From: Francisella tularensis subsp. holarctica | Lineage (GTDB): Bacteria; Pseudomonadota; Gammaproteobacteria; Francisellales; CACEW01 | Direction of reading: 5' to 3' | Assembly: GCA_945879065.1 (NCBI GenBank) | Contig: CAMCUU010000001.1 | Coordinates: 23,899 to 87,898 of the forward strand | Length of the DNA: 64,000 bases | Shown: one piece after another, positions 10,891 to 61,365 of the stretch | How the letters are laid out: every line of letters begins with the position of its first letter | Position numbering within the stretch: position 1 is the first letter of the stretch | Translations under genes and position numbers: made by a program | The notes under the pieces: generated by a model | Told to the model about the DNA's origin: nothing | Database searches by the model: none | The model's input: only the letters and a program-made list of their open reading frames with translations

Positions 10891-11721
10891 ATGGCTGGAG
10901 CTGGAGCTGGTGGCGATTTACCTACTGGAGAGATGAGCACTGAAAAAGAATTGTTTAATGCCATCAATCCAGGAAAAACTTTAGAAAAATTTACAAAGTT
11001 ATTAAAAGGATATTCTGGCGACTGGGCAGCGCTCGCAGAAACCTGGAGTGAGGCACCTTTAAAGGAAGACACTTTATCAATAAGAGCCGCTAGAAATAAT
11101 TGTGTAGATATCCTGAATCATCTACTCAGTCTTAAAGCAGCCGCATGCGAAAAACGAGCCTTAGCCAATCAGTCTAAACTTAGCAATGGGGCAACTCCAC
11201 TTTACATTGCCGCTCAGAATGGCCACCTGGAGGTCGTAAACGCGCTCATAGCTGCAGGTGCAGCTGTTGATCAAGCGTGTCATGATGATTGGACAACTCC
11301 GCTTTTCATCGCATCTCAGCATGGCCACACGGACGTCGTAAAAGCGCTCATAGCTGCAAATGCAGCGCTTAATCAAGCGTGTACTTCTAATCTAGCAACC
11401 CCGCTTTTCATCGCGTCTCAGAACGGCCACCTGACAGTCGTAGAAGCGCTTATAAATGCAGGTGCATCTCTTGATCAAATGGATATTTATAATGAAACTC
11501 CGCTTTTGGTCGCCATTAGGAAAGCGCACACAGCTATCGTAGCAATGCTCTTAGAGGAACCGGAAGCAAGACAAAGATTTAGTCCTTTACGCGCAGCATG
11601 GATAAGCGCCGTTGCAAGAACCCTAGGACGTGCAAGATCTGCAACGGCTTTTGCTGGTGCTGGAGCTGGAGCTGATCATAAACGACCGTGTATTGGCCCC
11701 GTTAAATCGGGATTAAGTTGA
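10891..11721 (+). CDS. Ankyrin-repeat protein (paralog of 7796..8851)
   Basis: 276 aa. Four ANK units (TPLYIAAQNGHLEVVNALIAAGAAVDQ, TPLFIASQHGHTDVVKALIAANAALNQ, TPLFIASQNGHLTVVEALINAGASLDQ, TPLLVAIRKAHTAIVAMLL). N-terminus MAGAGAGG. C-terminus RFSPLRAAWISAV...ATAFAGAGAGA. Confidence 0.9.
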   Translation: MAGAGAGGDLPTGEMSTEKELFNAINPGKTLEKFTKLLKGYSGDWAALAETWSEAPLKEDTLSIRAARNNCVDILNHLLSLKAAACEKRALANQSKLSNGATPLYIAAQNGHLEVVNALIAAGAAVDQACHDDWTTPLFIASQHGHTDVVKALIAANAALNQACTSNLATPLFIASQNGHLTVVEALINAGASLDQMDIYNETPLLVAIRKAHTAIVAMLLEEPEARQRFSPLRAAWISAVARTLGRARSATAFAGAGAGADHKRPCIGPVKSGLS

Positions 11722-12598: not shown

Positions 12599-13375
12599 TT
12601 AAATTTTTGAGAGTGAAATCTGGATAGAGGCCTGAATAGACTGGGCAATTTGCTCAAAAAGATTTTCTTGAGCCTGGGGTGATGAGCCATGCCAAAGCGC
12701 CTGATTAGTTTCTAACTCAATCCCCAAATAATTATTTTTAAATTGCTTTCTTAAATAACTAGTCAGCCCATCTGAGTTACCCCGATAGGGATAGTTTTTT
12801 CTAGTTTTAAAATTTAATTTTTCTAATTCACCCTGCCAGATCTTGCAGAATTTTTTTTCTAATAAATTTTGAGGGTCATAAAGTAACCCAATGTCTAAGT
12901 CTCTTTTTTTATTATTTAAAACCGGCGTAAACGAATGAATAGAAAGATGAATAACTAGATTATTTTTTTTAATTAAATCACTAATTTTGTTTTCTATTTG
13001 GGCTCTGTAGGGCTTATAAAAATCAGTCATTAAATTAATTTTATTTTCTGGGCTTAAATATTTTTTAGAAAATCTGGAAAATAATTTTGGATGATGGAGA
13101 GATCTATTTAATTCAATCACTAATCTGGAAATCTCAGAATAAAAAAATGGAATTTCACCCTGTCCAGCACGGCGGACAAACAGGTCCGCCCCTACAAGGG
13201 GAGAGACGAAATCACAAGATTCAAAATATTTCACCAAATATTTAGCCAGATCCAAAGCGCCGATATCTAAGCCCTCATGAGAATTTAAAATATTGTCTGG
13301 GATTTTTAAAATATGTTTTAAATTTTCGGGGATTTGATTCCCACCGTGCTCGCAAGTCATTAATAACTTAAACAT
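12599..13375 (-). CDS. N-formylglutamate amidohydrolase family protein
   Basis: 258 aa. Contains LLMTCEHGGNQIPENL, SHEGLDIGALDLAKYL, ISRLVIELNRS and IHLSIHSFTPV, matching my recollection of the FGase family. It contains an in-frame palindromic-element insert (DFVSPLVGADLFVRRAGQGE). Confidence 0.8.
   Translation of the reverse strand: MFKLLMTCEHGGNQIPENLKHILKIPDNILNSHEGLDIGALDLAKYLVKYFESCDFVSPLVGADLFVRRAGQGEIPFFYSEISRLVIELNRSLHHPKLFSRFSKKYLSPENKINLMTDFYKPYRAQIENKISDLIKKNNLVIHLSIHSFTPVLNNKKRDLDIGLLYDPQNLLEKKFCKIWQGELEKLNFKTRKNYPYRGNSDGLTSYLRKQFKNNYLGIELETNQALWHGSSPQAQENLFEQIAQSIQASIQISLSKI
13158..13213 (-). repeat. Palindromic element copy inside the amidohydrolase CDS
   Basis: The reverse strand reads GATTTCGTCTCTCCCCTTGTAGGGGCGGACCTGTTTGTCCGCCGTGCTGGACAGGG. 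It shares the CGTCTCTCCCCTTG module with 1451 and 19235, and the GTAGGGGCGGACCTGT.TGTCCGCC hairpin with 19999..20025. Confidence 0.75.
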
Positions 13376-14638: not shown

Positions 14639-16159
14639 TTATATTAACTCCAGTGAGCTGGGCTGATGATCTAAACGCGAGGCAAAAACGCCCATGATTT
14701 TTTCATAGAGTTCAGGCCCTAAAATTTTATCTTCAATGCCGTCATCAATATTAGGATTGTCATTAATTTCAATGACGAAAATTTCGCCATCGATTTCTTT
14801 GAGATCTATGCCATATAAACCATTGCCAATCATTCGACTGGCTTTAACGGCAATGTCTAAAACTTTCGGAGGGGTTTTTTCCAGCTCAATACATTCAAAG
14901 CCCCCTATCTGCTCATCGCCCACATCTTGTTTAGACCAGTTGTAAATCTGCCAGTGATCTTTGGCCATGTAATATTTACAAGAAAAAATGGGCTTGCCAT
15001 CTATCACGCCAATTCGCCAGTCATAAGGCGTGGGTAAAAAAGGCTGAATTAAAATCAAATCAGATTTTTCAAAACATAGCTCTGCATGATTTAAAAATTC
15101 TTTTAGATTATTGGCTTTTAAGACCCCCTTGGAAAAAGCCCCGTCTGGTAACTTAATCACACAAGGAAAAAACAACTGGTCTAGATATTCTTTATTTTTA
15201 TAAGTCTTGCGATACAAAATTAAACTCTCTGGCATGGGGATATTTAATTTTCTCAGCATTTCATCTAAATAAATTTTATTACTACAACGAATAATCGATT
15301 TTGGGTCATCCATCACCAACATGCCGTTGACATAAGCCTGGCGAGAAAACCGATAGGTATAATTATTCACGGACGTTGTCACTCGAATAAATAAAGCATC
15401 AAATTCTGAAAGCCTGGAAAAATCACTTTTAGTAATAAATTCCGTTCGAATATTAAATTTCTTTCCAGCCTCTACAAATTTATCCAGAGCTCTTAAATTT
15501 GACGGCGGATTGGTTTCATTAGGTTCAATCAAAATCGCTAATAAATACTGGGGGCAGTTGATTTTTCCAGTAGTAAAAGATTTTTTAGAAAAATAAGAAG
15601 CTGCAATGGGCTTAATTAATTTTAAACTTTTAAAATTATTTATTAATTCTGGCAAAGTGATGGGCTCTATATGCGCAATTTCCCAGCGATTTTTTTTAAA
15701 ATAAAAATTGACTTTAAATAAAGGAAACTGAAATTTTTCAGCTAATTTTTTAGCTAATTTTTCATAATTTTTATTTAAACTTTGGGCAAAATAAATCTCT
15801 AATTCAAAAGTATTATTTTTTATATTTTTTATATTTTTTAAATTATTTCTAAAACTACTTTGAATTAATTCACTTAGATCTTCAGAGACTGTTCTGACAA
15901 TACTTTGAGATTTAATATCGCTAATAGCCGCCATCGAGGGATACGCTAAATCTCCTCGTGCTTCAGCAATTAAAGACACGTAGTAGCCAATAGTCTGGTA
16001 TTTATAAGATTTACAAAAATTAAAAACGCGTGTCTTTCCAGGGATTGTTTTAACTAATGCGCTGGCATTATTTAAATATTCTGTCGCAGAAATGACCTCT
16101 ACTTTTTCAATATCAAAACACCAATTATTTAAGTGATCCACGACAATCAAATGACGCAC
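14639..16159 (-). CDS. RimK-type ATP-grasp ligase with an N-terminal RLAN-like domain
   Basis: 506 aa. The C-terminal half (FPCVIKLPDGAFSKGV, LIQPFLPTPYDWRIGVIDGKPIF, LYGIDLKEIDGEIFVIEINDNPNID) is a RimK-like ATP-grasp. The N-terminal ~170 aa (RVFNFCKSYKYQTIGYYVSLIAEARG) resembles the RimK-like ATP-grasp N-terminal (RLAN) domain as I remember it. Confidence 0.85.
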   Translation of the reverse strand: MRHLIVVDHLNNWCFDIEKVEVISATEYLNNASALVKTIPGKTRVFNFCKSYKYQTIGYYVSLIAEARGDLAYPSMAAISDIKSQSIVRTVSEDLSELIQSSFRNNLKNIKNIKNNTFELEIYFAQSLNKNYEKLAKKLAEKFQFPLFKVNFYFKKNRWEIAHIEPITLPELINNFKSLKLIKPIAASYFSKKSFTTGKINCPQYLLAILIEPNETNPPSNLRALDKFVEAGKKFNIRTEFITKSDFSRLSEFDALFIRVTTSVNNYTYRFSRQAYVNGMLVMDDPKSIIRCSNKIYLDEMLRKLNIPMPESLILYRKTYKNKEYLDQLFFPCVIKLPDGAFSKGVLKANNLKEFLNHAELCFEKSDLILIQPFLPTPYDWRIGVIDGKPIFSCKYYMAKDHWQIYNWSKQDVGDEQIGGFECIELEKTPPKVLDIAVKASRMIGNGLYGIDLKEIDGEIFVIEINDNPNIDDGIEDKILGPELYEKIMGVFASRLDHQPSSLELI

Positions 16160-16194
16160 TATGTCCCTCTCTTTAAATTTTTAATTTTTTAATC

Positions 16195-16917
16195 TTAATC
16201 TTTGGGCCTAATAAATAATAAATTCGCATCGTAAGTTAATTCACCAATCAAAATGGCATTAATTAATCTGGCTATTTTCACTTGATAATAATGCTGAGCC
16301 TTGGGATTTTTACTATAGGGATCGGCTAATAAAACCGTCTTGGAATTAGGCTGATAACCACTAATCACTACAAAATGCCCCATGGGCTCTCCACGAATAT
16401 CGTCATAACAAGACTCTTCGCAATTGCCAGGAATTTCTCTGGCTGAGCGATATAAATAAGTCGCAGAAAGGCCAGTTAAAATAGGCCCATAATCTTCGAG
16501 AGCGGTTTTTAAAAAGCGACTACTGAGATCTTCAGAAATAATTTCTCCGCCTAATTTCAAAAATTGAATATAAGCCTCGGAAGCTTGTTTTATTTTTAAT
16601 TTTTCTTTGCAAAGAATTTGAGCTTCTAATTTTTTAATTAGAAAATTATTTTTATTTTCTGGGGTATTAAAAAACCAAGTCGGGTCAAAAATTTGTAAAT
16701 CCAGGACATTAATCGTCACTTGGTAACCTCTTTTAAGCGCGTGAATGCCTAATAAAACAGCCAAAGTTCCGCCTGTGTTTAAATATTCTACTTCTTGAAT
16801 CACAGACTCTAAGTCAATCTTATCTTGATAAAAATGATAAATAGCGTGAAGACAAGTCGGCCCACAAGTTAAATCATTAGGCTGAGAAAGAATTTTTAAC
16901 TTCTTTATTTTCTGCAT
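16195..16917 (-). CDS. Papain-fold cysteine peptidase, C39-like (no fused ABC transporter)
   Basis: 240 aa. QPNDLTCGPTCLHAIYHFY gives a Gln six residues before the Cys, as in C39 peptidases. GHFVVISGY supplies the candidate His and LLADPY the candidate Asp. It is the first gene of the operon. Confidence 0.6.
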   Translation of the reverse strand: MQKIKKLKILSQPNDLTCGPTCLHAIYHFYQDKIDLESVIQEVEYLNTGGTLAVLLGIHALKRGYQVTINVLDLQIFDPTWFFNTPENKNNFLIKKLEAQILCKEKLKIKQASEAYIQFLKLGGEIISEDLSSRFLKTALEDYGPILTGLSATYLYRSAREIPGNCEESCYDDIRGEPMGHFVVISGYQPNSKTVLLADPYSKNPKAQHYYQVKIARLINAILIGELTYDANLLFIRPKD

Positions 16918-17073: not shown

Positions 17074-18483
17074 TTGGCAGGATTAAAGGTTAGTTCAAAC
17101 TTAACAAGCCCACCGGAGATTAATGCATTTAATAGCGCTCTGTATCGGCAGTTAAAAATTAGAAAGAGCGCTTGGATCCTTGGTGGAATTTTATTTCTGC
17201 ACACAGCTTCCTGTTTTTTCCTGATGGCCTGGGCCCAAGAAAAGAAAAGCAGAGCGTCTGGCGTTTTAATTCGCTGTACTTTGACAGGCCTGATTAATGG
17301 GGCGCTTTATAGCAACGGCTTAACAGAGTTAATTTTAAAATCCTGGGATGATTTGCATCAAGTTTGGGAATCCTGGAAAAAATCTAAATCTTTCAAACCA
17401 CCTAGCATTCCCTCTATTTTTTATTATTTAATTTTAATTAATTTCTCCAGCTGCGGGGCTTTATTAATGCCCGGCGATTTTTTTTCTATTAACCAAGAAA
17501 AAAATAACCAAGCAAAAAAAATTTACTCTCAAGACTTAATCTGGATCAATGCTTTAAGTTTATGGCTCTATGAGTCCTTGCTCATGCAGGCCCCGATTCG
17601 AGCCTTGATTATTTCCCCTTTGCAAAAACTCTGGAACTGGTATCAAAAATCAGAATACCCCTGCCCTGATTTAAAATTTTCTTTTCCTTTGATTACAAAA
17701 CTTGTTTTGGGTTCTTTTTTATTTTTTATATCAGTCCCTTTTTATCTAGGCGCCACAGGGTCGATGGAACGCGCTGCGGAAAAAATGACAGGAATTCGTT
17801 ATTTTCCTTGGTGGCTTTTGAGTAATTTATTTTTAATTGACACAGCAATGGCTTCTGCCATAGCAGGATCTTCTATGCTGCTCCTGTTTACTTATTATCC
17901 AACTAAGGGGCTCTACGCCACGCTGGATCACCTCATCTTTAGGCCTTTTAATTATGCCTCCAAAGTTCAGCACCCCAACCCATTGATTCCCATTAAAAGC
18001 TTGATTAATTGGACGCTCAGAGTGGGTATTTTAACTGCTTGTATTTATGGACTCTTGTCTGCGCTGGCCATTGAAGAAGAGGGCCAGAAAAAAATGATCG
18101 AAGATGGTGGATTACCAGGCCGCGTGATTAAGCAATATGCCAACTGGGGCTTTTCTACAGCAAAGCAAGTTTTTATGATTGCGCCGTTTTTAAATATTAA
18201 TGGCCTCTTTGGTTTTTTAGATGCTTTGCAAAAAATGGCCCAGCTAGGATTTAAACCCGCCTGCTTTTTTCTATGCAGCACTCAAGAATATTCAGATCAG
18301 GAAAAATTAGAGCACTGGAAAAAAGAACTTGATATAGAAAATAGTAATAATGCAAAAATTCTAGAAGACCATATCCCTTTAAAGTCTCGCAAAAAATCAG
18401 CTGACTACGCCGTATTAATTAAGCATTACTCAAATAAGTTATCAAACGCTGGAGATCATCAGGCGTATCAACGCCTGGCATAG
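17074..18483 (+). CDS. Hypothetical polytopic membrane protein
   Basis: 469 aa with many hydrophobic segments (ILGGILFLHTASCFFLMAW, YYLILINFSSCGALLM, LVLGSFLFFISVPFYL, WWLLSNLFLIDTAMASAIAGSSMLLLF). The TTG start in the track is uncertain. It is divergent from the amidoligase operon, and its 3' end overlaps the kdsB 3' end by 65 nt. Confidence 0.6.
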   Translation: MAGLKVSSNLTSPPEINAFNSALYRQLKIRKSAWILGGILFLHTASCFFLMAWAQEKKSRASGVLIRCTLTGLINGALYSNGLTELILKSWDDLHQVWESWKKSKSFKPPSIPSIFYYLILINFSSCGALLMPGDFFSINQEKNNQAKKIYSQDLIWINALSLWLYESLLMQAPIRALIISPLQKLWNWYQKSEYPCPDLKFSFPLITKLVLGSFLFFISVPFYLGATGSMERAAEKMTGIRYFPWWLLSNLFLIDTAMASAIAGSSMLLLFTYYPTKGLYATLDHLIFRPFNYASKVQHPNPLIPIKSLINWTLRVGILTACIYGLLSALAIEEEGQKKMIEDGGLPGRVIKQYANWGFSTAKQVFMIAPFLNINGLFGFLDALQKMAQLGFKPACFFLCSTQEYSDQEKLEHWKKELDIENSNNAKILEDHIPLKSRKKSADYAVLIKHYSNKLSNAGDHQAYQRLA

Positions 18484-19189
18484 AATTTTCCTTGGCTAAT
18501 TCAACGGCGATTTTATAACCAGAATATAAAAATCTTAATTGCTCTAAGCCTTCTAGTTTTTCTAAAACACATTCGGGCATATTTTTATAACTTAATAAAA
18601 AATTTACTTTATAAGCATATAAACCCAAATGCCTAAAATGATTTTTAAGATGTAGGGGCGAATCTTGTATTCGCCCGTTAGCACAGACCCAAGACCGATC
18701 CCAAGGAATCATCGCTCTAGAAAAATACAAAGCCTGACCAAAATGGTTTAAAACCACTTTAGTAATATTGGTATTTTTTAATTCTTCAAAATGTTTAATC
18801 TCTTCACATAAAGTCGCGACTTCACAGCTTGAATTTGATTTTAATAAATTCACCACTTGCTCGGCATTTTTAATATTTAATACCGGCTCATCGACCTGCC
18901 AATTTAAAACAAAATCTTCAGGGGGTAATTTTAATTGCTCGCAGACTTCAGACAGTCTCGACGTCCCTGAAATATGAGACAGATCAGTCATGCAAGTTTG
19001 CGCACCAAACGCTTCTGCAACTTCTTTAACTTTAAGATTATCCACGGCAATAATAACTGGGCCTAAATTAGATTTAACAGCCTGCTCATACGTATGCTGC
19101 ATCAGTGTTTTGCCATTAATATTCGCCAGAATTTTTTCAGGAAATCGACTGGAGGCTAAACGAGCGGGAATAATAATATGAGTATTCAT
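18419..19189 (-). CDS. kdsB: 3-deoxy-manno-octulosonate cytidylyltransferase (CMP-KDO synthetase)
   Basis: 256 aa. Contains IIPARLASSRFPEKILANINGKTLMQHTYEQA, NWQVDEP, ALYFSRAMIPWDR and RHLGLYAYK. It carries an in-frame palindromic-element insert ([12 protein letters not shown]). Confidence 0.93.
   Translation of the reverse strand: MNTHIIIPARLASSRFPEKILANINGKTLMQHTYEQAVKSNLGPVIIAVDNLKVKEVAEAFGAQTCMTDLSHISGTSRLSEVCEQLKLPPEDFVLNWQVDEPVLNIKNAEQVVNLLKSNSSCEVATLCEEIKHFEELKNTNITKVVLNHFGQALYFSRAMIPWDRSWVCANGRIQDSPLHLKNHFRHLGLYAYKVNFLLSYKNMPECVLEKLEGLEQLRFLYSGYKIAVELAKENSMPGVDTPDDLQRLITYLSNA
18651..18676 (+). repeat. Palindromic element copy inside the kdsB CDS (TGTAGGGGCGAATCTTGTATTCGCCC)
   Basis: Nearly identical to 1503..1528. 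On the coding (minus) strand it is read as tgt gct aac ggg cga ata caa gat tcg ccc cta cat. Confidence 0.8.
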
Positions 19190-19205: not shown

Positions 19206-19235
19206 GATTTTGATTTTGATTTTGATTTTGATTTC
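19206..19235. repeat. Hexanucleotide microsatellite (GATTTT)x4-5, intergenic ycaR/kdsB
   Basis: GATTTTGATTTTGATTTTGATTTTGATTTC read directly. The same hexamer is repeated in frame inside ycaR at about 19427..19445. Confidence 0.85.
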
Positions 19236-19298
19236 GTCTCTCCCCTCGCGGGAGAGACAGGACTGAAAGGGTGAAACCTTTCAGGACAGAGAGGGGGA
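19235..19298 (+). repeat. Double-hairpin GC-rich element, intergenic ycaR/kdsB
   Basis: CGTCTCTCCCCTCGCGGGAGAGACAG forms a stem GTCTCTCCC/GGGAGAGAC. It is followed by CTGAAAGGGTGAAACCTTTCAG (stem CTGAAAGG/CCTTTCAG). It shares the CGTCTCTCCCCT module with 1451 and 13202..13213. Confidence 0.65.
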
Positions 19299-19300
19299 AA

Positions 19301-19516
19301 CTAATCCAGCTCTTCTAAATTTAATTTCCTAGCCTGGTCTAATAACATCACTGGAATCTCATCAATAATGGGATAGGCCAATTTATCCGCACGACACCAG
19401 AGTTCTTCTGTTTTATCTTGTTTTTTATTTTGATTTTGATTTTTATAATTCAAAGGCCCTTTGCATACCGGGCAAACTAGGATTTCTAATAAAGCTTTAT
19501 TCATAGAATTTTTCAC
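19301..19516 (-). CDS. ycaR: Trm112/YcaR-family small zinc-ribbon protein (UPF0434)
   Basis: 71 aa. [16 protein letters not shown]...[27 protein letters not shown] aligns with E. coli YcaR. It has an extra [14 protein letters not shown] insert encoded by the AAAATC repeat. The lpxK-ycaR-kdsB synteny is the same as in E. coli. Confidence 0.85.
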
Positions 19517-20700
19517 ACCCTTAATTTTTTTAAATTTTTAAAATTTTTAATTTTATTAATAAATTCCTGATCAAAATTAAAATCTAAATTTTTAACTTCA
19601 GCGCTAAATTCAGCGCTAACTTCTAAATAAAAATAATGATTTAAATCCTGACCAATATTTAATAAATCTTGTTTTAAATTAATTATTTTTACCATGTCTT
19701 TTTCAGTAGTAATAATAGAAATATCAGCATTATTTAAATCATTAAAAATTAAATCTTGCGCTTTGAAGTCATGATGGTCTGGGAAAATATGTTTAATAAG
19801 TTTAAACCCCAGGCTTTCTAATAATTTAAAAAAACGATCAGGGTTTCCAATACCTGCGACAGCATGAACCCAGGGGCGCTCATGTTCGGGACTGGCAGAC
19901 AGGTCCGCCATCCCTAGCACGCCACCAGCAAAAATAGGCCGAAGTTTTTGAGGCATAAGCTTCATAGAAAAAGAATTAGAAAAAGAATGGATATCTCTTG
20001 TAGGGGCGGACCTGTGTGTCCGCCCTGCCGAATCAAGATCCAGGTCAAAATCAACACCATATTGCGTAATCACAAAATCTGCTTTGTTTAATCTTGAAAC
20101 AGGCTCTCTCAGAGGCCCCGCTGGAATTAAAAAGCCATTTCCAAATTTTCTTTCGCCATCTATGACAATAATTTCCAGGTCTCTATCTAAACCATAATGA
20201 GATAAGCCATCGTCCGATAAAATAATATTCACTTCTGGGAAATTTTTAATTAAACAATCTCGCGCAGCCGCTCTATCAACGCCGACGACCATAGGTAAAT
20301 TAAAATCCTGATTTGAAAATCTAGAAAAAATCATAAAAGGCTCATCGCCGGTGTTTTTAATTAAAGAATGTTTATCAATAATTTGGGGTATTTTTTTCTT
20401 AGAAAAATCACCCAAGTAACCCCTGGAAATCACACCCGGATTAAAACCCTCGGATTTTAATAAATTAATTAAATAAATAATCAAAGGCGTTTTACCCGTC
20501 CCGCCTAAAGTAATATTTCCAATAATAATGACTGGGATATTTTTATTTTTATTTTTTAAAAAAATTTTAAAATTTTTATTAAATAAAAAAATAATTTTAT
20601 AAATAAAACTAAATAGTAATAAAAAATAGATAACAAAATAATCCAGACCCTTTAATTTAAACTTAGGCTTATACCAAAGGGTCTCCAGATATTTAATCAT
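19513..20700 (-). CDS. lpxK: Tetraacyldisaccharide 4'-kinase
   Basis: 395 aa. Contains [38 protein letters not shown] (P-loop), [35 protein letters not shown] and TTEKD. It carries two in-frame palindromic-element inserts. Confidence 0.92.
19894..19918 (-). repeat. Degenerate palindromic element copy inside lpxK
   Basis: The reverse strand reads GCTAGGGATGGCGGACCTGTCTGCC. It is translated as [10 protein letters not shown], in the same orientation and frame as the amidohydrolase copy (LVGADLFVRR). Confidence 0.6.
19999..20025 (+). repeat. Palindromic element copy inside lpxK (TGTAGGGGCGGACCTGTGTGTCCGCCC)
   Basis: Hairpin GGGCGGAC-CTGTGT-GTCCGCCC. On the coding strand it is read as gat tcg gca ggg cgg aca cac agg tcc gcc cct aca aga ([13 protein letters not shown]). 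Confidence 0.8.
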
Positions 20701-23700
20701 CCTGGGTCAGCGCCGAACAAGAGCTGGCCATTTTCGCGGTGCAATTCTGAGAAAGATCTAATAAACCTCGCATCGCCACGAGGTACATAATAAATTCGTT
20801 TTTATTAGAACCCTTGAGATCTTGGATCATGTAGATCCAGCGGTTGACCATATATTTAAAAGCCCCAATCCACTGAGAAAGACGCGCGTCGAGATCTAAA
20901 TTTTTATCCGTCATGAGAATCACGCTGACGCTTAAAGAAGCTTGTAGTTTATCCATATCATCTCGAAGTTCTGAGCTGGCTAAAGTTCCCCAGTAACCCT
21001 CTTCACGCAAAGACCCAACGCTTTGATGGAACCAAGATATTTCTAATTTTTCCCCGAGTTTATAAAACACTTCGGCGACCTCTTTAAAATCCAAGTTATG
21101 CGCTGAGGCCACTTGAATAATGTCCATAAAGGGCGACATAAAAGCATAGTCAGAGGCTTTAAGAGTCAGCTCGTTAGGAATATGCGCGTGGGAATATTTT
21201 TTAATAAAATCTTTTTTAATATTCCGATCTTCTTTGCTTAGTAACTTAGACATCAACTGTCTGAGCTCAGCAATTTTAGGCTGATAGGTTTTAATTAATT
21301 CAGGGACATCTAATCCAGTTCGATTATTTTGCAATAACCAGCGAGAAAAGCGTCGGACCAGCCTTACGACTTCGCGCATCAAATCTTGCTGAATAGCCAT
21401 ATCCATCTTGCCATCGAGAGATTCTATTTTTGACCACATGTCTGGCAGCTCACAGATCTCTTTAGCAATAACATAAGCTCTTGCAATCAGCGCTGGCGTT
21501 GCCCCAGTTTCGTCATATAGACGATGAATAAAACCCATGCCCATCTGCTGAAGCATTTCATTAGTCAGCTGAGTCACTATAATTTCGCGACAGAGATAAT
21601 GCTGACGCATGAGAGGCCCAAATTTAGATTGTAAGATCTCTGGAAATTCAGCCGCTAAGTAACAATCAAAATAGGGCTCGTCTGGTAATTTAGATTTGAA
21701 AATCTCGCCTTTTACCGCCGTTTTTGAATAGGCCATCAAGACGGCTAACTCTGGTGCAGTTAGACCATGCCCACTGGAAAATCTGGCTTTAATGTCTTTA
21801 TCAGCTGGTAGAAATTCTAGTTTTCGATCTAAAAACCCTTCTCGCTCCAGCTCTCGAATTAATCTTAATTGCATGTATAAAACATCAGGAGAAGCTGAAC
21901 GCATATTATCTATGGCTTGAGTTTGATGATAATTATTACTCAAGACCAATCTTGCGACATCTTCTCGCATCTCTGACAAAAGCTGATTGCGATCTTCTGC
22001 TTTTAAATCCCCAGAATTAATCGCTTCTGTTAATAAAATCTTGATATTTACTTCATGATCTGAGCAATCCACACCGGCTGAGTTATCAATCGCATCGGTG
22101 TAAATTAAACCCCCTCTTTGGGCAAACTCAATACGAGCCAATTGGGTCACGCCTACATTACCGCCTTCGACTAAGACTTTGGCTTTGAGATCTGCGGCAT
22201 CCACGCGCACATCGTCGTTAGATCGATCCCCAATCGTAAAATTATTTTCTGTACTGGCTTTAATATAAGTCCCAATACCGCCGTTAAATAATAACTCCAC
22301 GCGCATTTTCAAAATGGCCTGAATTAATTCATTGGGCTCTACTTTTTTATTTTTTAATTTAAATAATTTCAAAGCTTCTGAAGATAAATTAATTAACTTA
22401 GCCGAGCGTTCAAATACTCCTCCCCCTTCAGAAATCAAAGAAGGATCATAATCTTGCCAGCTGGAGCGCTCTAGATTAAATAACCGCTGACGCTCTTGAA
22501 AACTAGTTTGTGCATTAGGACTAGGGTCAATAAAAATATGTCGATGATCAAAAGCAGCTAATAATTTAATATGAGGCGAGAGCAACATGCCATTGCCAAA
22601 CACATCCCCCGACATATCGCCAATCCCTGCGCAGGTAAAATCTTCTGTCAGAATATTTTTGCCCAAAGATAAAAAATGTCTCTTAGCGGATTCCCAAGCC
22701 CCTCGAGCCGTAATTCCCATTTTTTTATGGTCATAGCCATTACTGCCACCAGAGGCAAACGCATCGCCTAGCCAAAAATTATATTCTTTGGCAATTGCAT
22801 TCGCTGTATCTGAAAAAGTCGCGGTGCCTTTATCTGCGGCAACGACGAAATAAGGATCATCTTCGTCGTATCTCACGACATCTTTAGGCGGGATAATTTT
22901 AAAGCCGTCTCTATTATCTGTAATATCCAACATGCCTGAAATAAAAGTTTTATAACAGCGCGTGACTTCTTGAAAAATCTCTTGACGCGAGCCTTGCTTT
23001 GGCAAGCACTTAGCAATAAAGCCGCCTTTAGCACCAAAAGGCACAATTACGGCGTTTTTAACTTGCTGGGCTTTTAATAAGCCTAATACTTCACGTCTAA
23101 AATCTTCCCGCTCTGACCATCTCAAACCACCGCGAGCAACCTTACTTCCCCGCAAATGCACGCCTTCCATATAAGTCGCTGAAACAAAGATTTCATACAA
23201 GGGTAATGGTTTGGGCATATTAGAAATTAAATCAGACTGTATTTTAAAAGATAAATACGCATGATTTTGAGAGTGCTTATTTTTCTGAAAATAATTAGTT
23301 CTTAAAGTCGCTTTCATGACTTCTAAGAGCCGTCTTAAAATTCGATCTTTATCAATATTAGTCACTAGCTCTAATAATTTTAAAATCTTAGCCTCAGCCT
23401 GATGAAACCCGTCTTCTCGATTTTTTTGAGAAATCTTGGGGTTAAATTTAGAGATAAAAAATTGAATCAACTCACGCGCAATCTCTGGGTGTTCGCTCAA
23501 AGTATCTTCAATATAATTTTGCGAATATAAAAATCCGATTTGAATTAAATATTTTGAATAGGCTCTTAAAATACTGATTTCACGCCAAGATAAACCCGCT
23601 CTCATAACCAGCCGGTTAAACCCATCATTCTCAGCTCTTTTTTCCCAAACACTCGAAAAAGCTTCTTTAAAAATTTCACTGATGTCTTCAGGCTGAACTA

Positions 23701-25639
23701 AAGACCCCAAAAGCCTCATGCCAAAATCAGAAATCCAAATAGTCTCTTCACCGACTTTGATTTCATAAGGCCGCTCTTCCATGACAGACAGGCCCATATT
23801 CTCAAGAATAGGCAGAACAACCGTCAGGGGAATAGGCTCTGACTGATGGAAAAGCTTAAATCTAATATGATTATCCGCTTCTTCTAATAATCTATAAAAA
23901 CACATGCCGACGTAGTGCTGCTCTTTGTGATCTGTCTGATCTGTGTGATCTTTATTTTTTAAAACACTTTCTATATAGCCGATATCCAAAGCCGCTTGCT
24001 GACTTAAAAAAGCTTCTCTATAGCCCGCTGGAAAAGCCCGTGAATATTTAGAATAAAGCAAAGACCCTTGCTGCTCACCTTCCTGCTCTATTAAGACAGA
24101 GCGCAAATCATCCCGCCAATCACGCGAAGCAATGATTAGCTTAGCTTCCATCTGTTTAATTTTTACAGGCTCTAAGTGCTTTGCACACTTAGCATGAATT
24201 AAAAAATCAATCCGACATAAAACAGACGAGTCAAAAAAGATAGGTTCAAACTGAACTTCATGGCCTTCCAATTCATGAAGCAAAATATGCTGAATTTTTA
24301 ATCTCAACTCGGTATTAAATAAATCTCTTGGCAAATAAACCATGCAAGAAAAATAGCGGCTCAAAGGATCCTGAATAATAAATAATCTTAATTGCTGCCT
24401 TTCTTGAATATTTAAAATACCCAAAGAAATTTTTAAGAGCTGGGCTTGATCAATATGAAATAATTCATCTCTGGGAAAATTTTGCAAAATATTAACCAAG
24501 GCTTTACCAGCATGGCCATTCATATCAAAACCAGACTGCTGCAAGGTTAATCTGGCTTTTAATCTAATTAAGGGAATATTCAGAGGATTCGAATGATAAG
24601 CAATCGAAGTAAATAAGCCTACAAAGCGCCGCTCACCAATCCGTTCACCCTGGGAATTAAATAAACTTAAAACAATCACATCCATCCGACCACGACGATG
24701 AACACTGGATTCAAAATCACTTTTTGCGACTAAGAGAGGCTGGTTTAAATCTAAACAATAAGCCTGAGAAGAAGCACCCAAAAAACTTCCTTCTTGAAAG
24801 CGCTCTGAGTGATGCAAGATCCCTAAAGTCTTGCTGTTATCAATCGATAATTTCTTAGAACTTCCTTTAGGACTTAAAAATTCGGCATAACCTAAATAAG
24901 TAAAATGGTTATTATCCAGCCAAGTTAAAAAATCAATGGTCTCTAAAACTTCTTCTTTGGGATATCTGGAAAAATTATTTTTTTCTAAATCTAAACACTC
25001 AATAGCCTCTGCTAATTTTTTTCGCATCTTTGAATAATCAGAAACTGCTAAACAGACATCACCTAATACTTTAATTAAATTTTTCTGAATATTTTTTAAA
25101 ACTTTTGGCGCGTCTTCTTGCCGATCTATTTCAATATAAACAGGAGCCTCTACAACAGAACCATCTTCGACTGGATCTTCAGGACCTAAAACTTTGGATA
25201 CCAGCCCCTCAGGCGTTCTTAAAACTCTAAAATAACTTGTATGCAAAATAAAATGCATATTAATTCCCAGGCGATTTAACTCCATCACCATGGTGTCAAT
25301 TAAAAAAGGCATATCGTCTTGCGTCAGCTGAATCACTGTCCGACGAGACTGCCAACCATTGTTTTCCATATTGGGGTTATAGACATTCAGATTAATTTCA
25401 CCGGGCTTCCTATTCGCCAAAGAAATCCAATGCGAATACGCAATGCCAAACAGCTCTTCGAGGGTCCGCCCTTCCATCTCTTCATCAGCCACACTGCGAT
25501 AATAAGAGATTAAAAATTTCCCAAAATTGACTAACTCATTTTTGCTTATTTTCTTAGCCGCATAATCTAAAAGATCTTGGATTAATTGCTTATGGTTATT
25601 TTTTATCTCAGTTTTTATCTCAGTCTTCATATCGGTCAT
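20693..25639 (-). CDS. gdhB: NAD-specific glutamate dehydrogenase, large (~180 kDa) type
   Basis: 1648 aa. Central region ...GGLRWSEREDFRREVLGLLKAQQVKNAVIVPFGAKGGF...VVAADKGTATFSDTAN...GDMSGDVFGNGMLLS... is typical of bacterial giant NAD-GDH. Its stop overlaps the lpxK start by 8 nt. Confidence 0.93.
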   Translation of the reverse strand: MTDMKTEIKTEIKNNHKQLIQDLLDYAAKKISKNELVNFGKFLISYYRSVADEEMEGRTLEELFGIAYSHWISLANRKPGEINLNVYNPNMENNGWQSRRTVIQLTQDDMPFLIDTMVMELNRLGINMHFILHTSYFRVLRTPEGLVSKVLGPEDPVEDGSVVEAPVYIEIDRQEDAPKVLKNIQKNLIKVLGDVCLAVSDYSKMRKKLAEAIECLDLEKNNFSRYPKEEVLETIDFLTWLDNNHFTYLGYAEFLSPKGSSKKLSIDNSKTLGILHHSERFQEGSFLGASSQAYCLDLNQPLLVAKSDFESSVHRRGRMDVIVLSLFNSQGERIGERRFVGLFTSIAYHSNPLNIPLIRLKARLTLQQSGFDMNGHAGKALVNILQNFPRDELFHIDQAQLLKISLGILNIQERQQLRLFIIQDPLSRYFSCMVYLPRDLFNTELRLKIQHILLHELEGHEVQFEPIFFDSSVLCRIDFLIHAKCAKHLEPVKIKQMEAKLIIASRDWRDDLRSVLIEQEGEQQGSLLYSKYSRAFPAGYREAFLSQQAALDIGYIESVLKNKDHTDQTDHKEQHYVGMCFYRLLEEADNHIRFKLFHQSEPIPLTVVLPILENMGLSVMEERPYEIKVGEETIWISDFGMRLLGSLVQPEDISEIFKEAFSSVWEKRAENDGFNRLVMRAGLSWREISILRAYSKYLIQIGFLYSQNYIEDTLSEHPEIARELIQFFISKFNPKISQKNREDGFHQAEAKILKLLELVTNIDKDRILRRLLEVMKATLRTNYFQKNKHSQNHAYLSFKIQSDLISNMPKPLPLYEIFVSATYMEGVHLRGSKVARGGLRWSEREDFRREVLGLLKAQQVKNAVIVPFGAKGGFIAKCLPKQGSRQEIFQEVTRCYKTFISGMLDITDNRDGFKIIPPKDVVRYDEDDPYFVVAADKGTATFSDTANAIAKEYNFWLGDAFASGGSNGYDHKKMGITARGAWESAKRHFLSLGKNILTEDFTCAGIGDMSGDVFGNGMLLSPHIKLLAAFDHRHIFIDPSPNAQTSFQERQRLFNLERSSWQDYDPSLISEGGGVFERSAKLINLSSEALKLFKLKNKKVEPNELIQAILKMRVELLFNGGIGTYIKASTENNFTIGDRSNDDVRVDAADLKAKVLVEGGNVGVTQLARIEFAQRGGLIYTDAIDNSAGVDCSDHEVNIKILLTEAINSGDLKAEDRNQLLSEMREDVARLVLSNNYHQTQAIDNMRSASPDVLYMQLRLIRELEREGFLDRKLEFLPADKDIKARFSSGHGLTAPELAVLMAYSKTAVKGEIFKSKLPDEPYFDCYLAAEFPEILQSKFGPLMRQHYLCREIIVTQLTNEMLQQMGMGFIHRLYDETGATPALIARAYVIAKEICELPDMWSKIESLDGKMDMAIQQDLMREVVRLVRRFSRWLLQNNRTGLDVPELIKTYQPKIAELRQLMSKLLSKEDRNIKKDFIKKYSHAHIPNELTLKASDYAFMSPFMDIIQVASAHNLDFKEVAEVFYKLGEKLEISWFHQSVGSLREEGYWGTLASSELRDDMDKLQASLSVSVILMTDKNLDLDARLSQWIGAFKYMVNRWIYMIQDLKGSNKNEFIMYLVAMRGLLDLSQNCTAKMASSCSALTQDD

Positions 25640-36300: not shown

Positions 36301-36603
36301 TTAAGAATTTAAAGTCGGCGGTTTTAAATTGACATTGGATTTTTCAGCCGGATAACTCGTTGGTCCTGGAGGGATGATAAAAACAGGCTGAGTTTTTATA
36401 TTATTTAACCCTGAAGGCGCTACGGGTACTGGCCGCTCTGAAACTTCTTGATGCATGTAATCATTTTCATGGTTTTTCAAAGTAGAGGCACAGCCGCTTA
36501 AATTTAAACTTAAAGTAAAAATTAAAGTAAAAATTAAAGTAAAAATTAAAAATACTAAGCCCCTAAAAATAAAAATAAATTTTTGAATTTTTTTCATAGT
36601 CAC
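36301..36603 (-). CDS. Small putative lipoprotein
   Basis: 100 aa. Signal peptide followed by the lipobox-like NLSGC. The hydrophobic core is a 12-bp tandem repeat (IFTLIFTLIFTL). Confidence 0.6.
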   Translation of the reverse strand: MTMKKIQKFIFIFRGLVFLIFTLIFTLIFTLSLNLSGCASTLKNHENDYMHQEVSERPVPVAPSGLNNIKTQPVFIIPPGPTSYPAEKSNVNLKPPTLNS

Positions 36604-38401: not shown

Positions 38402-39538
38402 ATGACTTTAGATTCCCCATTAACTCTAGACTTGCATCTTAAAGGCACCGTCAGGGCTCGAGACCCTTCGGAGACTTTAAAAATCATTCAGCCCTATATT
38501 CAAAAAGCGGGGATCACTCGCCTTGCAAATTTAACCCACTTGGATTGCCTGGGGATTCCTGTTTTTACCTGCATTCGTCCACTGTCTAAAAATCTTTCGA
38601 CGTCTCAAGGCAAAGGAATTACAGACGATTTAGCCAAGTGCAGTGCTTATATGGAAGCCATTGAGCATTTTTTTAGTGAGAATATTCAGGCGGATTTAAT
38701 TAGCCCCATGGATCAAATTCCAGAGTCTTCAAGAGTTGATTTAGATTTATTATCTAAAGGTTTAATCCACTCAGACCAGGTTAATCCCTATCAAACTTAT
38801 ATTACTCACTGGACTCTCTGCGAAAGTTTATTAGGCGAAAAATCTTTATATTTTCCAACGGAATATTTTTCTTTTAATTTAACCCAGCCCTGCCTTGAAA
38901 ATAGTTTATTTAAAAAAACGACGACGGGTTTAGCCTCTGGTAATAATTTAATTGAAGCCTCCGTCCATGCGCTTTATGAGTGTGTTGAACGCCATATGAG
39001 TTTTTTATTTTCCAAGCTTTCTCATGCTGAAAAAATGGCGCGAATTTTAAATCCCGACAGTATTAATTATCCAGAAGCTCAAGACTTAATTAAAAAATTA
39101 AAAAACCATCATATTGATTGCGTGATTTTTGATACTACTCAGAATTTAAACATCCCTACTTTTCATGTGATCATTGCGGATGACAATCCTTTTAGAAAAT
39201 TAGGTCATTACAGCGGGACGGGAACTCATCTTCATGCTGGAATTGCCTTATGCAGAGCCCTCACAGAAGCGGTGCAATCAAGATTAACTTATATCGCCGG
39301 CTCTCGAGATGACATGTTTCCTAAAGACTATAAAACCCAATGGGGGGCGTTAAAATTTTCTGGGACTTATTTATTCAAACTAGACCCTGAAAAAACTTAT
39401 TTATCCCTTCAAGAGCAATATGATTTTTTATTAAATACTTTAAAAAATCATGCTTTTCATCCCTATAGACATATTCATACCCAAGCGTCTGATTTAATTA
39501 CGGTCTTAAAAATTATGATTCCAGGAATGGCTCTATGA
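38402..39538 (+). CDS. YcaO-domain protein (ATP-dependent backbone-amide activating enzyme)
   Basis: 378 aa. Contains LSTSQGKGITDDLAKCSAYMEAIEHF and TTTGLASGNNLIEASVHALYECVERH, the hallmark YcaO motifs. A 4-nt ATGA overlap links it to the downstream TfuA gene. Confidence 0.85.
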   Translation: MTLDSPLTLDLHLKGTVRARDPSETLKIIQPYIQKAGITRLANLTHLDCLGIPVFTCIRPLSKNLSTSQGKGITDDLAKCSAYMEAIEHFFSENIQADLISPMDQIPESSRVDLDLLSKGLIHSDQVNPYQTYITHWTLCESLLGEKSLYFPTEYFSFNLTQPCLENSLFKKTTTGLASGNNLIEASVHALYECVERHMSFLFSKLSHAEKMARILNPDSINYPEAQDLIKKLKNHHIDCVIFDTTQNLNIPTFHVIIADDNPFRKLGHYSGTGTHLHAGIALCRALTEAVQSRLTYIAGSRDDMFPKDYKTQWGALKFSGTYLFKLDPEKTYLSLQEQYDFLLNTLKNHAFHPYRHIHTQASDLITVLKIMIPGMAL

Positions 39539-58291: not shown

Positions 58292-59170
58292 ATGTTTGAT
58301 CTTTTAATAAGACGCCTAGCAAAAGCTGGGCTCTCAACTGGACTCTCAACTGGGCACTCTTCTCGCGTTTTATCCACACTGGTTCTTCCACTGCGAGTTC
58401 AAAATAGTATTTCTTTTTCAACACCAGAGAACACTTTTGATGTTCCACCAGGTTATTTGGCACTTACCTTGGCCTCTTCGAAGCAGCCTATTTTAGGCGC
58501 TGCTCATCCACCAGAAAGCCCTCCCTATCACCGAGAGTCCATCATCTTGGGATTTCATAGTTTATCTACAGGACTTACTGCTTTAGCTTCATTGGACATG
58601 AACTCATTTCTTCAAGCTTTTTCTTTAGTGCCCACTTTATTAAAAATGATCGAAGGAACGCCAAGAGAGAAAGATAAGCTAATAAGCGCGAAACCCTCCC
58701 TGAGTCTTTTCATTAGTCTGACACCGCGGGCTTATCGTGATCCACATGATCTTGAAAAGATCACCCCTTCCTGTGCTTGGTTTGTGAAAAGAAAATTAGA
58801 ATCACAAGTGGAATCACAGATTTTATTAGGCAAGCTAGCCGTATTAAATTTGCCGCCTAGTCGGTCTTTAACATTAGATTCACTCACAGGTCGATGCTAT
58901 GTCAGAGAAAAAGAAATCCCGTCAGATCATGACAGAGCTGGTTCTCTTGAAAATCTCAACGCAAGACGATTGGCAAAAGTTGTTTTAGAAAAATGCGAAA
59001 CAAAAGCAGCAGAAAAAAAAGCAGCAGAACCAAAACACCTCTGCTCTCAAACCGATTCTGATTTACTTAAAACCACCCCTGTTTTCAAAATCAGTGAATT
59101 TTTAAGACAAGCTCAGCTGGGCTCTGATTTAGAATCATTAGAATCAGAAGGAAGCCCGAGTGCCAGGTAA
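58292..59170 (+). CDS. Hypothetical protein (orphan, Ser/Leu/Pro-rich)
   Basis: 292-aa ORF with no recognisable motifs. Contains small tandem repeats (GLSTGLSTG, ESQVESQ, LESLESE) and an acidic C-terminal tail. Confidence 0.5.
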   Translation: MFDLLIRRLAKAGLSTGLSTGHSSRVLSTLVLPLRVQNSISFSTPENTFDVPPGYLALTLASSKQPILGAAHPPESPPYHRESIILGFHSLSTGLTALASLDMNSFLQAFSLVPTLLKMIEGTPREKDKLISAKPSLSLFISLTPRAYRDPHDLEKITPSCAWFVKRKLESQVESQILLGKLAVLNLPPSRSLTLDSLTGRCYVREKEIPSDHDRAGSLENLNARRLAKVVLEKCETKAAEKKAAEPKHLCSQTDSDLLKTTPVFKISEFLRQAQLGSDLESLESEGSPSAR

Positions 59171-60212: not shown

Positions 60213-60812
<600 letters not shown>

Positions 60813-60831: not shown

Positions 60832-60859
60832 GGGACGAATACAAGATTCGCCCCTCTAC
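60832..60859 (-). repeat. Palindromic element copy, intergenic wrbA/secB
   Basis: The reverse complement reads GTAGAGGGGCGAATCTTGTATTCGTCCC, near-identical to 1504..1528 and 18653..18676. Confidence 0.75.
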
Positions 60860-60885: not shown

Positions 60886-61365
60886 TTATTGAATGGTCTC
60901 TGTTGTTTTAGCTGGCTGTTTTTGCTGCAAGCCTTGAGCATACAAAGCATCAAAATTAACAGGTGCTAATTGCAAATCTGGAAAGCCCGCCCGAGTAACC
61001 AAACTAGAGAGCATTTCACGCGCATAGGGAAATAAAGTACTAGGACAAAAACTACCCAAAATATGACCCAACTGGGCTTCTGGAAAATTCGCAATCGTAA
61101 ATATTCCGACTTGTTTTAACTGAATCAAAAAAGCAGTCTTTTGAGCAGTCTTAGCAGTGACCGTCAAAGTCAAAGTCACTTTATGCGTATTGGGCATGCT
61201 GGCCACTACTTCACTCGCTGTGTTTAATTCAATATTCGCCTCGGGTTTCCAGCTTTCTTGAAACATCGCGGGGCTATTGGGGGACTCGACAGAGACATCT
61301 TCGACGTAAATTTTTTGAATTAAAAATTCACCTTGAGGTGCTTGATTTTGATCTAATTCAGCCAT
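60886..61365 (-). CDS. secB: Protein-export chaperone SecB
   Basis: 159 aa. FLIQKIYVEDVSVESPNSPAMF...CPSTLFPYAREMLSSLVTRAGFPDLQLAPVNFDALY aligns along its length with E. coli SecB. Confidence 0.9.
   Translation of the reverse strand: MAELDQNQAPQGEFLIQKIYVEDVSVESPNSPAMFQESWKPEANIELNTASEVVASMPNTHKVTLTLTVTAKTAQKTAFLIQLKQVGIFTIANFPEAQLGHILGSFCPSTLFPYAREMLSSLVTRAGFPDLQLAPVNFDALYAQGLQQKQPAKTTETIQ

Follow-up and report, generated by a model that had tools for sequence, protein, structure and literature searches.

On the reverse strand of contig CAMCUU010000001.1 (assembly GCA_945879065.1), an intact open reading frame (ORF) encodes LpxK, the tetraacyldisaccharide 4'-kinase, and carries two short palindromic elements inside its coding sequence without a break in the frame. 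We call the window the whole 64,000-nt stretch of this contig that was analyzed; coordinates given without a locus name refer to it, and its features are collected in Table 1. Site 1 is TGTAGGGGCGGACCTGTGTGTCCGCCC, at 19999-20025, and site 2 is GGCAGACAGGTCCGCCATCCCTAGC, at 19894-19918. Both are GTAG-tagged repetitive extragenic palindromic sequences (REPs), that is, members of a known superfamily rather than a new kind of element, and we consider it probable that they were mobilized by a REP-associated tyrosine transposase (RAYT), tolerated in frame in permissive loops of the protein and then left to decay. The initial annotation had already placed two in-frame elements here, and the sequences, the ORF and its translation agree with it. 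Its assignment of the gene to lpxK, and its remark that the protein is unusually long, hold as well: besides the family match listed in Table 1, the ORF finds Aquifex LpxK in the PDB (4EHW and 4EHX, E~1e-25), and its length compares with 311-376 aa (mostly 320-345) in the 120 best homologues, two lineage relatives excepted.

Table 1. Palindromic elements of the window and the lpxK gene that hosts two of them
Feature	Position	Strand	Context
Intergenic GTAG REP	1504..1531	+	just beyond the stop end of ORF 1545..3239 (-)
Intergenic GTAG-like hairpin CTAGGGGGCGAC...GTTTCGCCCC	4091..4117	+	between convergent genes, adjoins AAA-ATPase_like/PDDEXK_9 gene; degenerate
Degenerate intergenic copy GTGGGGACGAATCTTGATTTCGCCCC	8853..8878	+	right after the stop of ORF 7796..8851; weaker assignment
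Composite of CGTCTCTCCCC head, GTAG REP and degenerate tail	13148..13210	-	63 nt, in frame in FGase-family gene 12599..13375 (-)
GTAG REP GTAGGGGCGAATCTTGTATTCGCCC in kdsB	18650..18678	+	in frame in kdsB (18419..19189, -), read as GRIQDSPL; core 18652-18676
Two-hairpin element of the second family, GATTTCGTCTCTCCCC-TCGC-GGGAGAGAC-AG-hairpin-CAGAGAGGGGG	19230..19298	+	intergenic, between trm112 and kdsB; z = -3.6
lpxK (tetraacyldisaccharide 4'-kinase)	19513..20700	-	395 aa, intact; TIGR00682, E=3e-63
Site 2, decayed GTAG REP CTAGGGATGGCGGACCTGTCTGCC	19894..19925	-	sense to lpxK, read as LGMADLSA
Variable loop 1 of LpxK	19972..20061	-	residues 214-243; GATTTT-like repeats, REP and tail
Site 1, GTAG REP	19997..20028	+	core 20000-20025; antisense to lpxK, read as GRTHRSAPT
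Intergenic copy GTAGAGGGGCGAATCTTGTATTCGTCCC	60832..60859	-	between ORFs 60213..60806 and 60886..61365; degenerate

The core of site 1 reads GTAG followed by GGGCGGAC/CTGTGT/GTCCGCCC, a perfect 8-bp GC-rich stem closed by a 6-nt loop, and its hairpin folds as single-stranded DNA with -9.9 kcal/mol (z = -4.3). Within the window, the 26-mer of this site has 2 matches at up to 3 mismatches, against 0 expected, and 32 nt of it are 94% complementary to positions 13167-13198 in the FGase-family gene. The element at site 2 (19894-19921) lies on the opposite strand and has TAGGG and an exact 11-mer, GGCGGACCTGT, in common with site 1; this 11-mer occurs three times in the window, each time inside an element, with 0.02 occurrences expected. 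The tag of site 2 is CTAG and its hairpin (-4.8 kcal/mol, z = -0.6) is no longer significant, so this element is a decayed relic copy. Stems of 5-13 bp and loops of 2-20 nt define the superfamily, and site 1 and the kdsB hairpin fall within these ranges.

REPs form two superfamilies, GTAG- and CGTC-tagged, which are spread across many phyla and coexist in Coxiella burnetii (PMC3733652). GTAG REPs flank RAYT genes in units known as REPtrons (PMC3733652), and in-frame intragenic copies of both superfamilies occur in several species (PMC3733652, Di Nocera et al. 2013), with RPE-4 and RPE-6, among the Rickettsia palindromic elements (RPEs), being CGTC REPs (PMC3733652). After scanning one genome per species with the pattern GTAGGGGCGRAYCT-N3-6-RTYCGCC, we identified near-identical GTAG hairpins, of the form GTAGGGGCG[AG]ACCT..GT[CT]CGCCC and with even similar loops, in at least 120 stretches (L005-L124) that belong to widely separated phyla, against a rough chance estimate of about 17. 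The matches listed come from Bacillota, Bacteroidota, Desulfobacterota, Chloroflexota, Acidobacteriota, Nitrospirota, Cyanobacteria and several candidate phyla, as well as from a Coxiellaceae metagenome-assembled genome (MAG), a Berkiella MAG and one Asgard archaeal MAG (Promethearchaeota, L120), and many of the hairpins among them form inverted pairs. Copies in other phyla look mostly extragenic: Pfam searches of their stop-to-stop ORFs were mostly empty, or the hairpin lies upstream of a real gene. The resemblance across phyla may be due either to horizontal spread together with RAYT genes or to convergence. Hence, the family that had been called apparently distinct in the initial annotation is a textbook GTAG REP, present in many phyla and with a cognate RAYT in related contigs. 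The literal pattern that had been proposed for it, GTAGGGGCRAYCT..T.TYCGCCC, gave no matches because two subfamilies differ in loop length; homology among elements was searched with a gapped pattern covering the two. No Rfam family matched at gathering threshold anywhere in the window, a full-text literature search with 9-mers and 13-mers of the hairpin returned no relevant paper, and neither the text nor the supplements of PMC3733652 contain the exact stem sequence.

Both inserts of LpxK lie between the PAGPLRE block (residues 193-199) and the AVAGIGNP block (280-287), in stretches that an alignment with homologues identifies as expanded loops. Loop 1, between ADFVITQ and the FSMKL segment, has 30 aa, compared with 7-8 aa in 83 of 119 homologues; loop 2 (residues 251-277, up to VHAVAG) has 27 aa, compared with 21-22 aa in 103 of them. 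The loops are far shorter in 116 of the 119, and the conserved LpxK motifs are all intact. An AlphaFold2 model built on this alignment reached a mean predicted local distance difference test (pLDDT) score of 87.5 and a predicted template modelling score (pTM) of 0.89, and Foldseek placed it on Aquifex LpxK (4EHY) with a target-normalised TM of 0.81. In the model, both inserts fall in coil between beta strands, and the only stretch of at least three residues with pLDDT below 50 is 221-233, which belongs to element 1. The long loops, the intact motifs and the predicted coil placement together suggest that the inserts behave as tolerated loop decorations of LpxK. The orthologue alignment and the structure mapping that had been proposed as checks are both in line with insertion, and on the predicted model the inserts fall, as in RPEs, in surface loops away from catalytic sites.

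To compare the locus among relatives, we used four related loci: L001 (ENA ERZ27247968), which is 98.8% identical to the window over 14.8 kb, and L002, L003 and L004 (ENA, JGI 3300023184 and Logan), with about 78% DNA identity and the same gene order. Where the window has the GTAG hairpin of site 1, the sequence of L001 is GATTTTCGTCTCTCCCCTTGCGGGAGAGACAGGCTGAAGGC...AGAGAGGGAG, a complete element of another repeat family with two hairpins (the second family, described below), and L003 has a shortened form of this second-family element there. At site 2, the decayed GTAG copy is identical in the window and L001, and L003 has another palindrome, CCCCTCTCCCGCGAAGGTGGGAGAGGGG. The two lpxK copies of the window stand tag to tag, about 78 nt apart, and look like separate events, since only site 2 is common to the window and L001. 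Outside this lineage, the loop of LpxK that holds site 1 contains a GTAG REP in P0046 as well, from a MAG labelled Thiotrichales; this REP is GTAGGGGCGAACCTTGTGTTCGCCC and is read as GRTQGSPLQ. This MAG has the order glutamate dehydrogenase-lpxK-trm112-kdsB of the window and a KdsB 64% identical to that of the window, and its REP is an independent insertion. Other REP-like peptides are found in the same loop of P0007 and P0014. Loop 1 is evidently permissive and has been hit repeatedly. The Thiotrichales MAG is the nearest named relative with this gene order, and the Legionellales affiliation given in the initial annotation was not confirmed: UvrA is 67-72% identical to proteins of many orders, and neither the UvrA nor the LpxK homologues resolve the organism further than Gammaproteobacteria.

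One could argue that the two segments are ancestral, lineage-specific loops of LpxK that resemble the repeat by chance, or that they are assembly artefacts. The loops are indeed long at the two sites in all three lineage members, none of which has an empty lpxK site. We nevertheless regard this explanation as highly improbable, for site 1 is a 26-nt exact family member where no chance matches are expected, the loops are short in nearly all homologues, and the three relatives hold different, non-homologous palindromes at these positions. As for an artefact, P0003 is identical in three independent assemblies (ENA, JGI and Logan), P0002 comes from two sources, and a 26-nt repeat is far below the assembly k-mer size.

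As the initial annotation had noted, the family also occurs in two other genes and between genes. We count eight GTAG REP copies in the window, four of them in coding sequences (three genes) and four intergenic. An identical 25-mer, GTAGGGGCGAATCTTGTATTCGCCC, is found at 1504, between genes, and at 18652, within kdsB, and GTAG directly precedes the stem at 20000, 18652, 1504 and 13195 (-). The hairpins of site 1 and kdsB have z values of about -4.3 to -4.7, and the kdsB copy forms an 8-bp stem with a 5-nt loop. Compared with L003, whose site is empty, the kdsB copy is a clean 24-nt insertion. Likewise, the composite of the FGase-family gene (host identified as Pfam FGase), which adds 21 aa (VSPLVGADLFVRRAGQGEIPF) and is also present in strain L155, is a clean 63-nt insertion relative to L003. 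The three host genes stay open and retain their conserved motifs at the sequence level. These filled and empty sites, together with the long LpxK loops, bear out the proposal that palindromic repeats have been inserted and tolerated in frame, as RPEs are. Direct repeats, as expected for a miniature inverted-repeat transposable element, do not flank the 63-nt or the 24-nt insertion when filled and empty sites are compared. The intergenic copies are mostly located at the 3' ends of genes.

Copies of the family also occur outside the window. When metagenomes were scanned for GATTTCGTCTCTCCCCTYG, 37 stretches were recovered; 28 of them come from the JGI sample of L003 and have a GC content of 0.37-0.44. 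From these data we assembled a lineage census of 353 kb (the window, L003 and 26 loci), a biased sample in that the loci were picked for the head of the second family. It contains 28 strict GTAG hairpins of the two subfamilies, 13 of them inside ORFs of at least 120 aa. Among the hosts are RecG, a family-9 heptosyltransferase (Glyco_transf_9), an FtsJ-like methyltransferase and an NAD-dependent epimerase. Inverted dimers occur at L144 (12103/12138), L152 (3940/3981) and L131. Hence, about 40-50% of the copies lie in coding sequences (4/8 in the window, 13/28 in the lineage sample), which departs from the mostly extragenic location of the superfamily. ORFs of at least 120 aa cover 89% of the sequence, and the copies are still depleted in coding sequences with respect to random placement. 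Intragenic copies use both orientations and all five stop-free frames, as would random insertions that were filtered afterwards, with no particular peptide selected.

Usage of the frames also bears on whether the hairpins are kept for a function, either as intragenic RNA or DNA structures (acting on mRNA stability, RNase E, pausing or the translation of lipopolysaccharide (LPS) genes) or as adaptive surface peptides. Several hosts do belong to the LPS pathway (lpxK, kdsB and the heptosyltransferase), the same LpxK loop was struck independently in other lineages, and the intergenic copies sit at gene 3' ends as terminators do. But the remaining hosts are unrelated (FGase, RecG, the FtsJ-like protein, the epimerase and large unknown proteins), the copies are inserted in either orientation and in all five open frames, the hairpin of site 2 was lost with no sign of compensation, the copies of kdsB and FGase are missing from relatives, and different element types swap at the same site. 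We find retention for a function improbable on this balance.

The literature on REPs and RAYTs reportedly comprises Nunvar 2010, Bertels & Rainey 2011 and Ton-Hoang 2012. A candidate transposase for the elements of the window is encoded at L158 9271-9867. It is a 198-aa Y1 transposase with an HUH motif (MPNHLHG) and a Tyr motif (FKSITTHEY), and its best NCBIfam match is REP_Tyr_transpos (8.5e-16). The gene is flanked by inverted copies of GTAGGGGCGAATCTTGTATTCGCCC and then, outward, by inverted CGTCTCTCCCC heads, with terminal repeats of about 130 nt. In the REPtron (L158 9091-9993; L169 80-960; L168, L170 and L171), the outer CGTCTCTCCCC head is separated from the inner GTAG REP by a conserved spacer of ~75 nt. 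The stop codon of the RAYT lies past the right-hand REP, and the C-terminus of the protein is the REP-encoded GRIQDSPL. The same arrangement surrounds P0121, a RAYT 90% identical to that of L158, in four other contigs (L168-L171), of which L168 belongs to assembly ERZ27247968, the one that also holds strain L001. The kdsB copy matches the RAYT-flank REP of L169 at 27/27 positions, and the copy at 60832..60859 matches the RAYT-flank REP at 20/20. A PDB sequence search with the RAYT gave no match.

We also observed that several hairpin copies from other phyla lie inside RAYT-type genes, directly after the HUH motif (L010, L033, L053 and L089), and that many proteins of the widespread RAYT clade to which the transposase of this lineage is related have REP-derived in-frame peptides at this position (P0124, P0126, P0131, P0136, P0140, P0153 and P0185). 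Embedded peptides such as RRGEPCVRP ... GEHKVRPYG are the GTAGGGGCGAACC hairpin read both ways, so that the transposase gene hosts a cognate REP pair. Besides, a gene for an AAA-ATPase_like and PDDEXK_9 protein (L158 10047-11711) adjoins the RAYT unit, and the hairpin at 4091-4117 comes after a paralogue of it in the window (4144-5772, -), which may be a coincidence.

In the explanation that we favor, REP hairpins are or were mobilized in trans by the RAYT, through a single-strand cut-and-paste like that of IS200/IS605. Insertion would be more or less random, and in a compact AT-rich genome the survivors would be those copies that sit in permissive surface loops, measure a multiple of three nucleotides and are read in one of five frames free of stops. 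These would be translated as neutral loop peptides and later decay, as at site 2. A loop that holds a REP would also attract more REP-family sequence, which would explain the different palindromes at both sites in three lineage members and the swap at site 1 in the 98.8%-identical strain.

Several points weigh against RAYT-mediated insertion. Neither a target-site duplication nor a clear target motif was seen. Loop 2 exceeds its usual length by just 5-6 aa, which is not enough for an entire REP and implies that part of the original codons were replaced. As none of the three lineage members has an empty lpxK site, the insertion in this gene has to be deduced from distant homologues and from the other genes. 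A tblastn search found no RAYT in the 64-kb window or in L001-L004, and the link to one is through related contigs from the same metagenomes. The RAYT of L158 scores below curated cut-offs (58 vs 80 bits in NCBIfam; 20.3 vs 23 bits for Pfam Y1_Tnp). To our knowledge, RAYT-driven transposition of REPs has been demonstrated in vivo in no organism. Finally, over 48 kb the site-1 block of lpxK is the sole difference between the window and L001 that involves a palindromic element. REP positions are otherwise stable between these ~99%-identical strains, so current activity must be low. Substitutions cluster at the borders of the block itself (141 nt in the window, 147 nt in L001), a pattern suggestive of the import of a diverged allele through recombination.

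These last observations could be taken further, to propose that the elements spread and turn over by homologous recombination, gene conversion and import of diverged alleles, with no dedicated transposase today. At site 1, the replacement is accompanied on either side by ~8 additional substitutions, the rest of the gene being ~99.7% identical, and mosaics of the two repeat families are common, both as expected from recombination. However, the clean 24-nt and 63-nt insertions in unrelated genes need an insertion mechanism, and RAYT genes with intact HUH and Tyr motifs stand between the same REP flanks in several contexts. We consider recombination as the sole process unlikely, and still somewhat less so than retention for a function. 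Regarding the idea in the initial annotation that the family is active or was so recently, one element replacement at ~99% identity speaks for it, and this may be a recombination import; activity is thus only faintly indicated.

Other differences between the ~99%-identical strains were noted along the way. They are mainly in-frame changes of 6-18 nt in the length of tandem repeats inside genes (at window positions 30540-30551, 34360, 36539-36550, 39569-39577, 53940-53951, 58354, 61852 and others). Repeats of the (GATTTT)n type are found ahead of the second-family element upstream of kdsB, and inside trm112 and lpxK. Short hypervariable patches at 58717-58791 and 58968-59119 (ORF 58292..59170) and at 62611-62651 suggest fast-evolving or recombining surface or effector-like proteins. 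In L003, the N-terminal region of lpxK (7979-8098) has an in-frame extra of its own, about 107 nt between the membrane helix and the P-loop, and a palindrome at 16151-16200, CCTCTCCCATCGGAGAGG, lengthens the FGase ORF at its C-terminus.

The second family has the form TCGTCTCTCCCC-YYGYG-GGAGAGAC-AG-(variable hairpin)-CAGAGAGGGGG, with about 60 nt. In the window it begins with (GAT)TTCGTCTCTCCCC at 1449 and 19230, and is fused to the GTAG hairpin at 13198-13210; a CGTC-like head at 1449-1482 stands about 20 nt ahead of the REP at 1504. The element upstream of kdsB belongs to the same family as the lpxK element of L001 (L001 10668-10740). Among L131-L165, in the 353-kb sample, we found 39 complete copies, 16 of them in ORFs and typically read as DFVSPLVGETG...DREG. 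In some copies, a GTAG hairpin replaces one of the hairpins, which is the composite type seen in the FGase gene of the window. CGTC REPs have an unpaired CGTC, an 8-9-bp stem starting with A/T pairs, a 4-5-nt loop and a CCA tail. The second family does have CGTC and a 5-nt loop; its GTC lies inside a 9-bp stem (GTCTCTCCC/GGGAGAGAC) with no A/T start, and its tail is CAG. The termini of the RAYT unit described above seem to be where this family originated. It is possible, and we propose it tentatively, that one RAYT element, with its ~130-nt composite termini made of an outer CGTCTCTCCCC head and an inner GTAG hairpin, was the source of both families, the 25-nt GTAG REP and the ~60-nt CGTC-like element, each with ~40-50% of copies in coding sequences, forming mosaics and turning over at the same permissive loops of essential LPS enzymes even between ~99%-identical strains.

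Two further features of the two-hairpin element were recorded. The purine arm of hairpin 1 recurs as a mirror repeat in the 3' purine tail, CAGAGAGGGGG, and this arrangement could form a triplex. As a candidate identity we tried whalefall-1 of Rfam (RF01762), which scored 18.7 bits at 19236-19298 against a gathering threshold of 37, and at this threshold it had no match in 12 lineage loci with many second-family copies.

With respect to known systems, the analogy with Rickettsia is apt. RPE-1 to RPE-8 were reportedly described by Ogata et al. in 2000 and 2002, and RPE-1 is about 100-150 nt long. Like the elements presented here, RPEs are selfish palindromes that lie in frame within housekeeping genes, in a genome that is compact and AT-rich, and their loop peptides are tolerated and decay. 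They differ in that there is no sequence relation: our elements are GTAG hairpins of 25-30 nt, as opposed to the CGTC-tagged RPE-4 and RPE-6 and the longer RPE-1, and the lpxK elements of the window carry no CGTC tag, which sets them apart from RPEs by sequence. Moreover, the host is a gamma- and not an alphaproteobacterial lineage, and here a candidate transposase can be identified. In the bacterial interspersed mosaic elements (BIMEs) of E. coli, too, REPs and further short motifs make up mosaics of varying composition at a single locus; in contrast, BIMEs lie outside genes, and the motifs that accompany their REPs have no relation to the CGTCTCTCCCC two-hairpin element.

The closest likeness is to GTAG REPs, REPINs and REPtrons, which have in common with our elements an unpaired GTAG, a GC-rich stem of 7-9 bp, a short loop and many dispersed copies, as well as intergenic copies at 3' ends. 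Inverted dimers, frequent in this superfamily, are seen in the lineage, and a RAYT flanked by the inverted hairpin is seen in related contigs. Occasional in-frame intragenic copies have also been published, e.g. in uvrA of Opitutus terrae (PMC3733652). In that survey, though, REPs are mostly intergenic (PMC3733652), whereas about 40-50% lie in coding sequences here, with lpxK and kdsB among the hosts; the composite terminal repeats of ~130 nt, with their outer CGTCTCTCCCC head, are a further difference. In Coxiella burnetii, QMITE2 has a GTAG REP inside it and some in-frame ORF overlaps (Wachter et al. 2018, PMC5896051). It resembles our case in its gammaproteobacterial genome of intracellular type, in the REP placed within a larger miniature element and in the in-frame extension or interruption of some ORFs, but it is 150-190 bp long, has direct repeats of 7-11 nt, is mainly found in 3' untranslated or intergenic regions, and its REP is the target of IS1111 (PMC5896051). 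The units here measure 25-65 nt, show no direct repeats and are frequently located in the middle of genes for conserved enzymes. Intragenic REPs, and GTAG REPs as a kind, were thus already known; what is new is that so large a share of the copies is intragenic, that LPS genes are among the hosts, that two loops of LpxK are occupied recurrently and differently between strains, and that mosaics are formed with a CGTC-like two-hairpin family.

With these findings, the range of protein-coding palindromes, which took in Rickettsia and a handful of REP-rich species, now includes an uncultured gammaproteobacterial lineage and essential genes for lipid A and Kdo. The filled and empty sites, the replacement between strains and the independent strikes on the LpxK loop make up a natural experiment on insertion-tolerant loops. 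Since the inserted hairpin can be tied to an identifiable RAYT, its mobilization can be tested in vitro. As for annotation, insert peptides in conserved proteins, DFVSPLVGETG included, should be read as repeat-derived and not as lineage-specific functional motifs. If both families did come from a single RAYT source, this would be the first link of CGTC-like repeats to a transposase, and the lineage would be a gammaproteobacterial counterpart of Rickettsia for selfish DNA that builds protein loops.

The remaining genes of the window give some context on the organism. We found ankyrin-repeat genes with a periodicity of 99/102 nt (3628-3956, 8333-8605 and 11194-11635), a protein of the mitochondrial carrier family (49610-50632) and a mevalonate-pathway operon (43973-49519), which hint that the organism lives in association with a host. 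The window further contains YcaO/TfuA genes (38402-40938) and a gene for a 1648-aa NAD-glutamate dehydrogenase (20693-25639).

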